Of a DNA stretch of 64,000 bases, positions 37,471-46,207 are shown piece by piece. This DNA comes from Patescibacteria group bacterium (lineage in GTDB: Bacteria > Patescibacteriota > Patescibacteriia > SBBC01 > CAIJZX01). The notes beneath the pieces are model-generated. The model did no database searches, was not told the origin of the DNA, and saw nothing but the letters and a program-made list of their open reading frames with translations. The number at the start of each line of letters is the position of its first letter. Position 1 is the first letter of the stretch. Location: assembly GCA_038065275.1 (NCBI GenBank), contig JBBTRH010000012.1:14374-78373 (forward strand), given 5' to 3'. Both the position numbers and the translations under genes were made by a program.

Positions 37471-38397
37471 TTACCCGTTCAAGAGCGTGGCTAAGGTGAC
37501 GATGGCCAACCCTTTGGCCTTCAGGGCGGCTACCAAGTCAGTGATCAATTGAGGCGTGATGTCGTACCCGGCGTGGAGACTAACAATGGCGCCGCCGGAC
37601 TGCTTGTCCAGGGCGGTCAGCACCCGTTCCTGGGCCTGCGCGGCGGTTATACCGTCCTGCCAGTCATAAGCGTCGACTGTCCACAGCACGGCGCAGTACC
37701 CCTGTTGGTTGAGTAGCTTAACCGTTTGGGCGGTGTAGTTGCCGCTAGGGGGGCGAAAAATTGGTTTCGGGCTGATGGCGGTAGCGCTGACGATGGCTGA
37801 TTCGGCTGTACTAATGGCGCTCAGGACGTCAGCGTCACTCATGGCGGCCAGGTTGGCGCTGTTATAGCTTTGGCTGTAAACGGCGTGGCCCGCCTGAGCA
37901 ATGGATTTGACCAGCGCCGAATTCTTGGCGGCGAACGACCCGGAGACGAAGATGTCGGCTGGCAGGCCTGCTTGCTTGAGCGCATCAAGCGCTTGCTGGG
38001 CCTGGTCATTGGCGGCCGACATGGCCACGGTCAGGACTACTTGCTTGGTCGTCCCGAAGCTGGAAATGGCGTTAGGACATTGCTTGACTGAAAAACCTTT
38101 CCAGTTGCCGCTGGTGATGACCATCTCCGGGGATGACAAGTTGGTATTCGTCGAACCGTTGGTATCGGTCGTTGAGGCGTTGGTGTTGGCGTTATCGGTC
38201 AGCAACGAAATAGCGGCGGTATCATTGCCGCCTGTTTTAGTCGTCGACTTTTTGCCTCCGAAAATGAGCCGGCCGATCAGGACCAGCACCACCACGACTA
38301 CCCCAACGACCAGCCACCGACCCCAGCTCCCTAAGGAGGAACTGCTCCGGTGCGGTTGGTAACGATGATAATCAGCCATGGGTCGTTGACGTCGCAA
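37471..38397 (-). CDS. polysaccharide deacetylase (NodB-homology domain), membrane anchored
   Basis: LWTVDAYDWQD and HAGYD.T motifs; N-terminal TM plus Thr/Asn-rich linker. Confidence 0.75.
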   Translation of the reverse strand: MRRQRPMADYHRYQPHRSSSSLGSWGRWLVVGVVVVVLVLIGRLIFGGKKSTTKTGGNDTAAISLLTDNANTNASTTDTNGSTNTNLSSPEMVITSGNWKGFSVKQCPNAISSFGTTKQVVLTVAMSAANDQAQQALDALKQAGLPADIFVSGSFAAKNSALVKSIAQAGHAVYSQSYNSANLAAMSDADVLSAISTAESAIVSATAISPKPIFRPPSGNYTAQTVKLLNQQGYCAVLWTVDAYDWQDGITAAQAQERVLTALDKQSGGAIVSLHAGYDITPQLITDLVAALKAKGLAIVTLATLLNG

Positions 38398-39025
38398 GGG
38401 CCTGACGCCACGTTAAGTATACCACCACCGCCCGGTATAAGCCAAAGAACAGCCCAACGAACCCGAGATCGCCTAGAACTGTATTGCGGAAGAATGGCAG
38501 ACCGGCCGCGTATGCCTGCATCAGTCCGGCGCCAGTGTGTGGATACATCGACTGGAACGCCCAGACCGCTGCATTGGTCACCAGGAAAAATACGATCGAT
38601 CCGGCCAAGCTGAACATTAGTAGGCGCCGCACGGCCAAGCGCTGTCGGAGCTGACGGCCGAATAAATTACTGGACGCAAACGAGGCATACACAGCGACCA
38701 TGACCGGTAAGGTGTAAAATCCGATGATTAGATCGCTGGCCAGCATGGCGGATAGCGGCACGACGAATGTCCACCGCCGCGGCAAGTACGCGCCGCTGAA
38801 GAGTGCCATGGCACTAATCGGGGCCACGTTGGGCGGGAGCGGCAACCAACCGGCGTCGCGGACAACGCGGATAACGGCGCCCAGGACAACTAGGCCGACC
38901 ACCATCACCGTGGTGAATGAAGCTCCGCGGGCTTCCATCCGCGGTATATTTAGGTTCTTCGGCAGAACGGAATCCGCCGAAGTCCCGCCGAGCGGGACGA
39001 AGGCGGATGAAACGCGGCGGGTCAT
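38372..39025 (-). CDS. ECF-transporter S-component-like membrane protein (possible cobalamin-specific CbrT-like)
   Basis: ~6 TM helices; lies downstream of the DUF4430 genes and the structured leader. Confidence 0.4.
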   Translation of the reverse strand: MTRRVSSAFVPLGGTSADSVLPKNLNIPRMEARGASFTTVMVVGLVVLGAVIRVVRDAGWLPLPPNVAPISAMALFSGAYLPRRWTFVVPLSAMLASDLIIGFYTLPVMVAVYASFASSNLFGRQLRQRLAVRRLLMFSLAGSIVFFLVTNAAVWAFQSMYPHTGAGLMQAYAAGLPFFRNTVLGDLGFVGLFFGLYRAVVVYLTWRQALATSTTHG

Positions 39026-39408
39026 GGCGATTGGCGCTCGACCGCGATCTGATCGCCTTGTTCCAGCGATCGGAGGCTGAGATCGGCGACCAGCACGCCG
39101 TTGACCCGGACCTGCCAGCCACCAGTGACGTCGTTAGACAGGTTGAGGAAACGGCGCAGGTAGATCGACGAGCCGCGGCTGGTGTACTCGAATGACGACC
39201 CAGCGGCCGCCTGTCCGAGCGCTTCCGCGATCGTCCCGTACTGCGGACGCGATATCAGCCGCCTCACCTGGTCACCGGACCGAACCGTGACCGGCACGGT
39301 CAGCGACGCGGCTGTCGCCGCGCCGAGGATTCGGTCCGGAGCAGTGGTCATGCTTCGATTCGCGGAGAGGAACGGCGACAGAAAGACCATTGACAAACCG
39401 CTGACCAT
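39022..39408 (-). CDS. DUF4430-like protein (second copy; start uncertain)
   Basis: C-terminus SIYLRRFLNLSNDVTGGWQVRVNGVLVADLSLRSLEQGDQIAVE resembles a DUF4430 beta-grasp; the longer track ORF would overlap 39551..39910. Confidence 0.35.
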   Translation of the reverse strand: MVSGLSMVFLSPFLSANRSMTTAPDRILGAATAASLTVPVTVRSGDQVRRLISRPQYGTIAEALGQAAAGSSFEYTSRGSSIYLRRFLNLSNDVTGGWQVRVNGVLVADLSLRSLEQGDQIAVERQSP

Positions 39409-39550
39409 TACCAGCGTCAATCCGATATCGCGCCATAGCACCCGGCGGGACAAAGACGGATGAAGATGATTCGCCGCCCGCGAGTTCAATCTCAACGGCG
39501 CCAAGCTTTTTCCAGGCTTGGTGACCGTCTTCCTGCCACTGGTGGGCATC

Positions 39551-39910
39551 TTAATAGCTTTCAAGCTTCCACTCAATCTTGTCGCCATTGGTCGTTTGGT
39601 AATCTTTCGCGCCGACTTCAGCTTGTTTACAGTTGACATAGAAAGCCCAGAATTGGCGATCACCCGGTTTCTTGCCATCAATGGCGTTGACGAACCCCTG
39701 GGTGGAGACGTCAACTTGGTGAGTAGACTGGAGCAATTCTAGAGCATTTTTCCCGTCTTGACCAGCGTAAGTTACGCTGTCAGCCGCGGCGACGCAGACG
39801 ACGGTGTTGGCATTCTTTACCGGAACCTTGACGGTCGTTGTTAAACCACAACCGGCACCGACCAAAGCCAGGCTAAGGACGATAATGAGAATTGATGAGA
39901 AACGTTTCAT
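39551..39910 (-). CDS. DUF4430 (BtuG-like) lipoprotein, putative extracellular corrinoid-binding protein
   Basis: lipobox ..LVGAGCG; FWAFYVNCKQAEVGAKDYQTTNGDKIEWK is the DUF4430 hallmark. Confidence 0.65.
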   Translation of the reverse strand: MKRFSSILIIVLSLALVGAGCGLTTTVKVPVKNANTVVCVAAADSVTYAGQDGKNALELLQSTHQVDVSTQGFVNAIDGKKPGDRQFWAFYVNCKQAEVGAKDYQTTNGDKIEWKLESY

Positions 39911-44900: not shown

Positions 44901-45416
44901 GAACCACTGCGGCGAGTTCGGGGCGCCCATCTGCTTGATGAGCATCGCCGCCATTTCGTCTTGATATGCCTCTGCGTCGGCCGGCGATGCGAAATAGCCG
45001 TGCCGTTCGCCCCACCAGCGCCAGGTGCCGGCCAACCGACGGACCACCTGTTTGGCGCTCCGCTCCGGACCGAGGAGCTGTTTCCCATCGGCGCCGATGA
45101 TGGGCTTCCCCGACGCGTCGGTATGGGGAACTCCGGCTTTGCGGAAGTATTTTTGCGCCAGGATGTCGGTCGCCACCTGACTCCACGTCGCCGGCGCCTC
45201 GACCGCGGTAATTTCCTTAACTACCGTCCCGTCGGGATTCTTGATCACCGAACTCCGCCGCTCGTACCGCAGTTGTTCGAGCGGGTCCTGGCCGGCCATG
45301 GTGAACAACCGCTCGATTCGCATCCCCGGTCCAAGCCGCGGCGATACCGACGCCACCGGCGTATCGGTCGCGGCGGCAGTCTGGGCGCGGTCAGCGGCGG
45401 TTACGGTTTCGGACAT
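41904..45416 (-). CDS. nrdJ: class II (adenosylcobalamin-dependent) ribonucleotide reductase NrdJ, long form with C-terminal zinc ribbon
   Basis: RNR active-site contexts [36 protein letters not shown]; C-terminal [22 protein letters not shown]. Confidence 0.9.
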
Positions 45417-45444
45417 GGTCGTGATACTTCAGCTGAGAAAAAGA

Positions 45445-45912
45445 TTATCGTGGCGCGCGTTTGCCTTTGGCCAAGGCATTCAGTTCCCGCTTGAATGAAG
45501 CCGCATCCTGGAATTGGCGATAGACGGAAGCGAAACGGATGTAAGCCACCTGGTCGACCCGTTGCAGGCGTCGCATGGCCAGTTCGCCGATCTGTAACGA
45601 AGTGACTTCCACCCGGCCGCGAACCTGAATATCCCGTTCGACCTGGCCGATTAGGCGTTTGAAGGATTGGGCAGTGATCGGCCGCTTTTCCAGGGCTTTC
45701 CGCAACCCGTTTTCGAGCTTGTCGCGATTGTACGGTTCGCGTCGGCCGTCGCGCTTGATGACCGTTAAGTTGAGGATTTCCACCTCTTCCACCGTCGAAA
45801 AACGGTACCCGCAGCGGTCGCATTCGCGGCGGCGGCGGATGGCCAGCCCTTCGTCAGTCACCCGGGAATCCATGACGCTGGTATCGTGATGATGACAGGA
45901 CGGACACTTCAT
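45445..45912 (-). CDS. nrdR: transcriptional repressor NrdR
   Basis: MKCPSCHHHDTSVMDSRVTDEGLAIRRRRECDRCGYRFSTVE (zinc ribbon plus ATP-cone); TATAAT overlaps the ATG, so it may be leaderless. Confidence 0.9.
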   Translation of the reverse strand: MKCPSCHHHDTSVMDSRVTDEGLAIRRRRECDRCGYRFSTVEEVEILNLTVIKRDGRREPYNRDKLENGLRKALEKRPITAQSFKRLIGQVERDIQVRGRVEVTSLQIGELAMRRLQRVDQVAYIRFASVYRQFQDAASFKRELNALAKGKRAPR

Positions 45913-46158
45913 TATAGACACGGTGGGTTATCATATGACCCTTGGCGACCCGCGCAACTCCCCGGTTTGTGGTAAAACAGGCATTTTGTGGAGCATGGCG
46001 GGTTAGAATATAATCGGCCTCAACCCCGCCCCTCCGGAATATCAGGAGAACGTAGCCTATGCCGGACGGCCCGCGGGCGACACCAATCGGCGATCACAGG
46101 CAAATTATGTGTAAATGTTCTTTTATTTGGTTTTTTGCTTGATCAGCTACTGCCGGAA

Positions 46159-46207
46159 CCACTACATCTTGTGTCTGTAAAGAGCATTGTACCACTACAT
46201 CTAGGGT
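46159..46207 (-). promoter_or_regulatory. tandem NrdR boxes (CCACTACATCTTGTGT and CCACTACATCTAGGGT, 33-bp phasing) with an extended -10 TGgTACAAT between them
   Basis: 13/16 and 12/16 matches to the NrdR-box consensus acaCwAtATaTwGtgt; ~250 nt upstream of nrdR. Confidence 0.5.

Follow-up and report, generated by a model that had tools for sequence, protein, structure and literature searches.

A B12-centred locus linking a class II ribonucleotide reductase to predicted corrinoid uptake in a bacterium of the candidate phyla radiation

Bacteria of the candidate phyla radiation (CPR, Patescibacteria), with their very small genomes, probably subsist on metabolites that other microbes make; to our knowledge, how they acquire cofactors is mostly unclear. 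Computational analysis of a 64-kb stretch of DNA from one such bacterium (hereafter the window; contig JBBTRH010000012.1 of assembly GCA_038065275.1) was undertaken, with a series of genes related to vitamin B12 as its subject. Between positions 38372 and 46207 the minus strand carries, in this order, two NrdR boxes, the repressor gene nrdR, the gene of the class II, adenosylcobalamin-dependent ribonucleotide reductase (RNR) NrdJ, a DUF4870 gene, the adenosyltransferase gene cobA (btuR), a gene for a protein with four transmembrane (TM) helices, a structured leader, the gene of a DUF4430 lipoprotein, the gene of a membrane-anchored protein X and a DUF6580 gene (Table 1). A preliminary description made from the sequence had listed this series, and its strand, order and limits were all recovered here.

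Gene identities were assigned with curated hidden Markov models (HMMs) from Pfam and NCBIfam, and the Pfam scans took in the larger open reading frames (ORFs) across the window. For comparison, loci encoding relatives of the DUF6580 protein were collected. At least 554 are present in species-representative genomes, and the best 80 are nearly all from CPR. Gene counts given below refer to 81 non-redundant related CPR loci; individual DUF6580-encoding loci are labelled L001, L003 and so on. The nearest relatives of the window DUF6580 protein are from Kerfeldbacteria, and the source metagenome-assembled genome is close to Candidatus Kerfeldbacteria. Many related contigs (L007, L008, L021, L037, L041 and others) are titled 'uncultured Gammaproteobacteria bacterium'. 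These labels look wrong, since gene content and synteny (ftsZ-nrdR-nrdJ ... DUF6580-pda-htrA) are typical of Kerfeldbacteria/CPR. No papers mentioning DUF6580 were found in the literature searched, and searches for papers on B12 uptake in CPR gave nothing relevant.

Table 1. Features of the locus and of the genes that follow it, in the direction of transcription
Feature	Position	Strand	Evidence or remark
Sigma-70-type promoter, TTGACT-17-TACAAT, extended TG	46186..46214	-	10/12 consensus positions; ~270 nt upstream of nrdR
NrdR box 1, ACCCTAGATGTAGTGG	46192-46207	-	in promoter spacer
NrdR box 2, ACACAAGATGTAGTGG	46159-46174	-	just downstream of promoter; 33 bp downstream of box 1
nrdR, ATP-cone/zinc-ribbon repressor of RNR genes	45445..45912	-	TIGR00244 187 bits (cut-off 125), PF22811, PF03477
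nrdJ, class II adenosylcobalamin-dependent RNR, 1170 aa	41904..45416	-	NF005736 1779 bits (cut-off 1737)
DUF4870 small membrane protein	41410..41733	-	PF09685 27.4 bits (cut-off 25)
cobA, CobA/BtuR-type ATP:corrinoid adenosyltransferase	40766..41341	-	PF02572 180.6 bits vs 25.7, E=4e-53
Orphan 4-TM membrane protein, 154 aa	40300..40764	-	ATG one base after cobA stop
Promoter-like site, TTGACT-18-TAGCAT	40281..40310	-	ahead of riboswitch
Predicted divergent cobalamin riboswitch aptamer	40029..40226	-	model R1 73.1 bits, E=3e-18, filters off
Terminator-like hairpin, then U-rich run (GUAUUUAUCAUU)	39973..39994	-	presumed expression platform
DUF4430 lipoprotein, 119 aa	39551..39910	-	PF14478 54.1 bits vs 23.8, E=2e-14
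Membrane-anchored protein X, 175 aa	39022..39549	-	extent equals NCBI gene call
DUF6580 membrane protein	38372..39025	-	PF20221 E=2e-44; start overlaps X stop as ATGA
Weak internal promoter-like site	38416-38445
Polysaccharide deacetylase	37471..38379	-	PF01522; likely start overlaps DUF6580 stop by 8 nt
189-aa gene without family	36897-37466	-	4 nt after deacetylase; syntenic in relatives

Unit 1: from the NrdR boxes to the 4-TM gene

The upstream end of the locus is formed by a strong promoter with tandem NrdR boxes. Box 2, with three mismatches to the general NrdR-box consensus, is the sole such site in the window, and the exact 13-mer core of the boxes occurs across the 64 kb at the two box sites only. 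Similar tandem boxes, spaced by 32-33 bp, are found upstream of nrdR in relatives, their distance to nrdR being 140-250 nt in L001, L007, L008, L010 and L017. In the window, an unusually long 5' untranslated region of ~240 nt (45913-46158, minus strand) lies between the promoter and nrdR; it has no match to any Rfam family. With an NrdR protein and tandem 16-bp boxes about three helical turns apart at a promoter, the unit has the makings of a predicted NrdR regulon.

The nrdR ORF opens at GTG 45921, its likely start being ATG 45912 (MKCPSC). The product of nrdJ matches PF08471 (Ribonuc_red_2_N, E=3e-34), PF02867 and TSCPD besides the family listed in Table 1 and belongs to class II. The DUF4870 gene is kept downstream of nrdJ in relatives (L001, L003, L004 and others) and has no known link to B12. 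The ORF of cobA opens at TTG 41383 and is likely to start at ATG 41341; the L005 orthologue is 190 aa long. Besides the family HMM match, the cobA product carries a GNGKGKT P-loop, while its scores are below the NCBIfam equivalog cut-offs (TIGR00708, 152.8 bits vs 167.75). The box search and the HMMs bear out the earlier naming of the NrdR boxes, nrdR, class II nrdJ, DUF4870 and btuR/cobA, and the 4-TM protein and the leader of ~390 nt that follow are likewise present as described.

The 4-TM ORF has no Pfam or NCBIfam match, and a search of 5.8 billion proteins gave only two close homologues of its product. None came to light in any related locus, and no such gene was called in L001, L003 and L004. 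L005 has a barely similar TM ORF in the corresponding slot, and in other relatives unrelated genes (NUDIX, peptidase-like protein) are located in or near it. The gene is treated as a probable lineage-specific orphan and is not counted among the conserved parts of the system. Terminator prediction on the minus strand gave none between nrdJ and its downstream genes; nrdR, nrdJ, DUF4870, cobA and the 4-TM gene therefore probably form a single NrdR-repressed operon, hereafter referred to as unit 1.

The leader of unit 2

Unit 2 comprises the genes of the DUF4430 lipoprotein, X and DUF6580. Its leader stands ahead of the lipoprotein gene, and the stretch between the leader and the 4-TM gene showed no terminator. 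Orthologous leaders have a TTGAC-17-TAnAnT element just upstream of the part that corresponds to the aptamer. An Rfam scan of the window at the gathering threshold returned no riboswitch. Similar leaders precede the DUF4430 gene in relatives, in the syntenic loci L001, L003/L010, L004/L017 and L005-L008. The leader of L001 reaches the RF00174 gathering score (31.6 bits), and those of L006, L007 and L004 give sub-threshold Rfam matches at the equivalent position.

Eight leaders were aligned by hand. The alignment revealed helix P3 (GG/CC), a UAA joining segment J3/4, P4 capped by a GGUGAAAUUCC-type loop, P5 capped by UCCCG, and P6. It also showed a hairpin, variable in its stem and conserved in its GUCGA loop, and a B12-box-like AAGACAAGACCUUCG. 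P4, P5, P6 and the hairpin have visible compensatory changes. A covariance model, R1, was built from six orthologous leaders, with the window sequence excluded, and the window was aligned to it by Infernal. The six leaders were chosen without an insertion in L4, because for the window and L010, which have one, MAFFT placed it on the wrong side of P4. R1 scores the window aptamer at 64.5 bits under default filters. The aptamer is composed of P3, P4 with a 47-nt insertion in L4, P5/L5 (UCCCG), P6 with a 51-nt insertion, a P7 hairpin with the GUCGA loop and the B12-box-like element. The conserved core is present: GGUAA, a T-loop-like L4 on P4, a C-rich L5, ACCGUA and the B12-box-like element.

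The P6 insertion (window 40086-40136, minus strand) is GC-rich and has a near-identical counterpart in L001 (8995-9050). It is shared only with L001/L002; L005, the closer locus by protein identity, lacks it. A repeated element was considered as its source and ruled out, the insertion being single-copy in the window.

R1 found a total of 47 matches, of which 46 are on the strand of DUF6580; 39 are further sites in other CPR loci. Matches upstream of DUF6580 are present in the window and in 40/81 related loci, most of them just upstream of a DUF4430 gene. When seven distant loci were tested, Rfam AdoCbl-II (RF01689) or Cobalamin (RF00174) scored above its gathering score at the R1 site in five (L046, L053, L065, L071 and L083). 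In the alignment of the 47 sequences, which was fitted to R1 so that its pairing counts are biased towards the structure, 94.5% of cells are paired vs 66.5% in shuffles, and controls in which the positions were slid collapse. Compensatory double changes occur in 16/19 pairs of this alignment.

The aptamer is followed by a terminator-like hairpin, whose 3' strand GGCGGG is complementary to aptamer L5 (CCCGC). The series CCUGC..GUUGGCGGG..UUUAUU is kept in eight orthologous leaders. A long-range antiterminator helix CCCGCCACCGU/ACGUUGGCGGG was considered and set aside: in the window and L001, a C-to-A change has its compensating change (G to U) inside P5 and not in the downstream segment. A shorter contact between L5 and GGCGGG is possible.

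The leader resembles known cobalamin riboswitches (Rfam clan CL00101, with RF00174 and RF01689) in its core sequence, P3-P6 junction and B12-box-like element, and also in its position upstream of a predicted B12 transporter operon with a terminator-like platform after it. It differs from the clan in a score below gathering, in the L4 and P6 insertions and in a lineage-specific P7 hairpin with its conserved GUCGA loop; in relatives, the promoter is immediately upstream of P3, so no P1/P2 is evident. We conclude that the leader is, by sequence comparison, a divergent cobalamin riboswitch, a predicted identity that specifies further the structured leader of the preliminary description through the R1 match, the covariation and the Rfam matches in related loci. 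It would act as a transcriptional OFF switch; we infer both ligand binding and the direction of control.

Similar elements were met elsewhere in CPR loci. L071 has two R1 matches in tandem (8116-8200 and 8258-8352) upstream of one operon, the first being AdoCbl-II by Rfam. Some CPR relatives have, downstream of DUF6580-pduO, a second element that resembles a cobalamin riboswitch (L065 11048-11155, L060 4617-4720, L083 10749-10844). In L065 (11199-12647) and L060 (4778-6124) this second element precedes the gene of a 450-480-aa protein without a Pfam family, which may be a further B12-regulated gene.

Products of unit 2

The DUF6580 gene was first given a start at Met30, from homologue lengths. 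This was dropped for 39025: the start there overlaps the stop of X as ATGA, as it overlaps the preceding gene in relatives, and the N-terminus MTRRVSS matches MIRRPSS in L005. A single-sequence phmmer search of PDB gave nothing useful. A profile of 43 homologues gave exactly one PDB match, 6fnp_A, which is the CbrT subunit of the Lactobacillus delbrueckii energy-coupling factor (ECF) transporter ECF-CbrT (E=2e-5). The AlphaFold2 (AF2) model of DUF6580 has a predicted local distance difference test (pLDDT) score of 93 and six helices. The best Foldseek matches of the model are structures of BtuM bound to cobalamin (8c7p, 8ovv; probability 1.0, TM-score 0.60-0.67), followed by the S-component chain of 4HUQ, PanT, ThiT, FolT and RibU. 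The modelled protein has the fold of an ECF S-component, a six-helix fold of ~180-200 aa. An AxxxA docking motif was looked for by eye in helix 1; the outcome was too ambiguous and was not used. The gene had been described as S-component-like, of the CbrT family: the fold part stands, through CbrT by profile and BtuM by structure, both of them S-components specific for B12, while the family is DUF6580 (PF20221), with remote homology only to CbrT.

Two outward-facing proteins are encoded upstream of DUF6580. The DUF4430 lipoprotein has a signal peptide with a ..VGAGC lipobox, whose cysteine, Cys21, is invariant among orthologues. Its best sequence match in PDB is the beta domain of human transcobalamin (5no0, E=0.0096). 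We predict that the lipoprotein is a surface corrinoid binder.

The preliminary description had rightly named the DUF4430 domain and had called the protein BtuG-like. BtuG of Bacteroides is a surface lipoprotein that is a seven-bladed beta-propeller (PMC10404256), whereas the window protein is a small alpha/beta domain of 119 aa, and homology to BtuG was rejected in favour of relationship to the transcobalamin beta domain. The two proteins are not homologous; their predicted roles, as surface lipoproteins capturing B12 for a membrane transporter, are analogous.

The N-terminus of protein X is basic, and the protein has a single TM helix and an outward domain of ~100 aa. Only eight detectable homologues exist, and single-sequence phmmer against PDB gave nothing useful. 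An AF2 model was computed from eight sequences. Its top Foldseek matches are 3u7z, a DUF4430 structure, and the transcobalamin, haptocorrin and intrinsic factor beta domains (probability 1.0, E ~5e-4), supporting X as a second DUF4430/transcobalamin-beta-like protein by modelled fold and not by HMM. The earlier suggestion of a second DUF4430-like gene therefore finds support in fold comparison and not in Pfam, and the 230-aa ORF length given for it is replaced by 175 aa, as in the NCBI call.

The beta domain of transcobalamin, intrinsic factor and haptocorrin is Pfam DUF4430; the window lipoprotein is alike by sequence and X by fold. The window differs from transcobalamin in that only beta-like domains are predicted, on two separate membrane-anchored proteins. 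In L048 (7040-9947), and also in L066, L023, L063, L012 and L033, which are of other CPR lineages, DUF4430 and alpha/alpha-toroid (SQHop_cyclase/Prenyltrans) domains are encoded between the riboswitch and DUF6580. Magasanikbacteria-like loci show this content, and the two domains are either fused or on neighbouring proteins. DUF4430 and alpha/alpha-toroid domains are the two halves of transcobalamin, and the arrangement resembles, by its domain matches, a split or fused bacterial transcobalamin.

Gene linkage, alternative readings and meaning of the locus

To see what accompanies DUF6580, its neighbours were counted. A DUF4430 gene is located upstream on the same strand in 65/81 loci, nrdJ is found in 28/81 and nrdR in 19/81. 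An adenosyltransferase gene is present in 28/81 loci, 20 being of the CobA type and 8 of the PduO type, seven of the latter immediately downstream; a protein like the L048 alpha-toroid protein is encoded upstream in 27/81. At least one B12-related neighbour is present in 73/81 loci. Linkage of DUF4430 and DUF6580 with nrdJ and an adenosyltransferase gene recurs across CPR lineages in varied gene orders. The order in L065, L071 and L080 is nrdR-nrdJ-riboswitch-DUF4430-DUF6580-pduO (the DUF4430 gene of L071 was missed by the tblastn screen). In the lineage of the window, PduO is replaced by CobA. This is a non-orthologous displacement, and because of it we take the linkage to be functional rather than merely inherited.

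The order in these three loci mirrors the nrdJ-cbrS-cbrT-pduO cluster of L. delbrueckii, on the basis of which the function of CbrT was predicted and then proven (PMC5997447). In that cluster, too, genes for a B12-dependent RNR, an S-component-type B12 carrier and an adenosyltransferase stand side by side, in a likely B12 auxotroph. The locus in the window differs in the carrier (DUF6580, PF20221, vs CbrT, PF12822) and in the adenosyltransferase (CobA-type vs PduO-type). Its uptake genes have their own cobalamin riboswitch and two transcobalamin-beta-like partners, and no ECF module is near. In CPR, the locus corresponds to the Lactobacillus cluster but uses another transporter family, one not yet studied.

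The best structural match of DUF6580, BtuM, is a solitary ECF-type S-component for B12 that works without an adjacent ECF module. The btuM genes adjoin btuR, and the protein requires Cys80 as cobalt ligand (PMC6072759). In the window, cobA is 1.7 kb upstream of DUF6580, and no ECF module was found in the 64 kb. The differences are considerable: BtuM and DUF6580 have ~20% sequence identity and no sequence-level match, Cys80 is without a counterpart, and BtuM is found in Proteobacteria alongside BtuB, not lipoprotein binders. In L067 (7624-9768), a contig labelled Bacteroidetes, a gene for a TonB-dependent receptor (Plug and beta-barrel) precedes DUF6580, which echoes the proteobacterial BtuB-BtuM pairing.

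We read the locus as one centred on B12, in which two adjacent transcription units of a CPR bacterium tie NrdJ to the uptake and adenosylation of corrinoids, with a probability of about 0.78. Judging by the known behaviour of its family, NrdR would repress unit 1 in response to the nucleotide pool. With ample corrinoid, the aptamer would bind it and transcription would stop; with little, the genes of the DUF4430 lipoprotein, X and DUF6580 would be expressed. The lipoprotein and X would capture corrinoid and pass it to DUF6580, which would carry it across the membrane. For this, DUF6580 would need no partner, in the manner of BtuM, or would dock to an ECF ATPase module encoded at another site, in the manner of CbrT. 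CobA would then make adenosylcobalamin for NrdJ. The hand-over between the proteins and the source of energy are steps that we infer. Among the larger ORFs of the window, Pfam scans revealed neither cob/cbi genes nor a further RNR, nor any ABC (ATP-binding cassette) or ECF component, so the earlier statement that cobalamin biosynthesis genes are absent holds within the 64 kb. The central claim of that description, a locus linking NrdJ to corrinoid uptake and adenosylation, gains support from the riboswitch, the S-component likeness, the binder folds and the recurrent linkage.

Several observations weigh against this reading. The permissive Rfam scan gave only a partial RF00174 match to the leader (20.8 bits at 40070-40219, gathering score 31.5), the effect of the two large insertions in L4 and P6 on folding of the window aptamer is uncertain, and the terminator hairpin is weak, four of its nine pairs being G-U. 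X has no Pfam match; its alignment with DUF4430 by hhalign, on a W..vNG motif, is not significant (E=0.099), and its model is of moderate confidence (mean pLDDT 59, domain core 74-89). DUF6580 is outside the CbrT family: it hits PF20221 only, while a CbrT fragment hits PF12822 and PF07155. The window protein has no cysteine, and alignment A1 has no invariant Cys or His column. The substrate of DUF6580, a predicted corrinoid transporter, is therefore assigned from context only, the protein being outside both the CbrT and BtuM families and having no cysteine that could ligate cobalt as in BtuM. Neither an ECF ATPase nor a T component was found in the window or adjoining DUF6580 in 1.4 Mb of DUF6580 loci. 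A motif scan gave no ABC ATPase ORF in the window and four in the 1.4 Mb, none linked to DUF6580. The lack of a linked ECF module fits a shared module elsewhere, as in the CbrT model, or a solitary carrier, as in the BtuM model. Finally, the ftsZ ... htrA gene order is in part simple inherited synteny in Kerfeldbacteria-like genomes.

This last point leads to the reading in which nrdJ and cobA adjoin the uptake operon by inherited synteny in a small genome, with no functional meaning. Among close relatives, synteny does extend over the entire block, from ftsA/ftsZ by way of the locus to pda, htrA and prfB. Yet the linkage recurs in distant CPR lineages in different orders and with CobA replaced by PduO, the intervening genes vary while the B12-related genes stay, and analogous clusters exist in Lactobacillus and beside BtuM; we regard synteny without function as highly improbable. 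It is also very unlikely, if slightly less so, that the leader is not a working riboswitch and is a decayed relic or an unrelated structured 5' untranslated region, the operon being constitutive or expressed by read-through from nrdJ. The score below Rfam gathering, the insertions of 47 and 51 nt and the lack of a detected terminator between the 4-TM gene and the leader would agree with this. However, the core motifs and helices are kept, with covariation, in many genomes, a terminator-like hairpin is conserved after the aptamer, and the insertion sites are tolerant: L010 has an insertion at the L4 site of the window and L001 one at its P6 site.

The alternative that concerns the substrate is unlikely, too. 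The riboswitch operon would then import something other than complete cobalamin (cobinamide or another precursor, a different cobamide, or cobalt), and DUF6580 would not be specific for B12. B12 riboswitches control cobalt transporters in other bacteria, and the context-based assignment of the DUF6580 substrate leaves room for such a ligand. CbrT itself transports cobinamide besides cobalamin (PMC5997447). Against this, the lipoprotein and X share the fold of the transcobalamin beta domain, which binds whole corrinoids, and in other CPR lineages the partner adds an alpha-toroid domain and hence both transcobalamin halves. Furthermore, the window has neither cob/cbi genes nor genes for nucleotide-loop assembly, which are needed to use precursors or cobalt.

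Within the reading of the locus as a B12 uptake and adenosylation system, a more specific proposal can be made tentatively, and we hold it to be more doubtful than probable: DUF6580 may be a third, CPR-wide, B12-specific family of S-component type that works without an ECF ATPase module and is loaded by surface-anchored transcobalamin-like binders, DUF4430 alone here and DUF4430 with an alpha-toroid domain in other lineages. We know of no ECF-type transporter that uses extracytoplasmic binding proteins. If the proposal is true, DUF6580 would be an S-component that depends on them.

Downstream of DUF6580, the polysaccharide deacetylase gene overlaps it by 8 nt in L005 also and is syntenic in 15 related loci. 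It may be co-transcribed with DUF6580, and we assign it no role in B12 metabolism. Since both the deacetylase gene and the 189-aa gene after it are syntenic in relatives, both may be under control of the B12 riboswitch; a weak promoter-like site is located internally (Table 1).

Elsewhere in the window, a 1208-aa class I aminoacyl-tRNA synthetase (8739-12365, minus strand; tRNA-synt_1 and Anticodon_1, similar to isoleucyl-tRNA synthetase) carries a histidine-phosphatase domain (PF00300, E=1.7e-34) at residues 530-709, after the catalytic stretch (12-541) and well before the anticodon-binding domain (931-1071). The histidine-phosphatase superfamily includes CobC/alpha-ribazole phosphatase and phosphoglycerate mutase. 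The window also encodes a 2076-aa protein with an N-terminal segment like a type IV secretion system (T4SS) pilin and Big_5/TIG domains (51356-57586, minus strand), an IS200-like transposase (58757-59410, plus strand) and a transfer-messenger RNA (tmRNA; 19727-20129, minus strand).

The grouping of nrdJ with a B12 carrier and an adenosyltransferase, and B12 riboswitches on transporter genes, are already known from Lactobacillus and Proteobacteria. What is new here is the CPR version, with an uncharacterised S-component family, DUF6580, and transcobalamin-beta-like surface proteins; it is an extension and not a new principle. The DUF6580 family gains a probable substrate from the locus, and the findings point to bacterial two-part versions of transcobalamin. 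For CPR bacteria, the locus provides a concrete picture of B12 use, in which capture and import under a predicted riboswitch, an adenosyltransferase and a B12-dependent RNR stand together, and in which DNA synthesis may hinge on scavenged B12.

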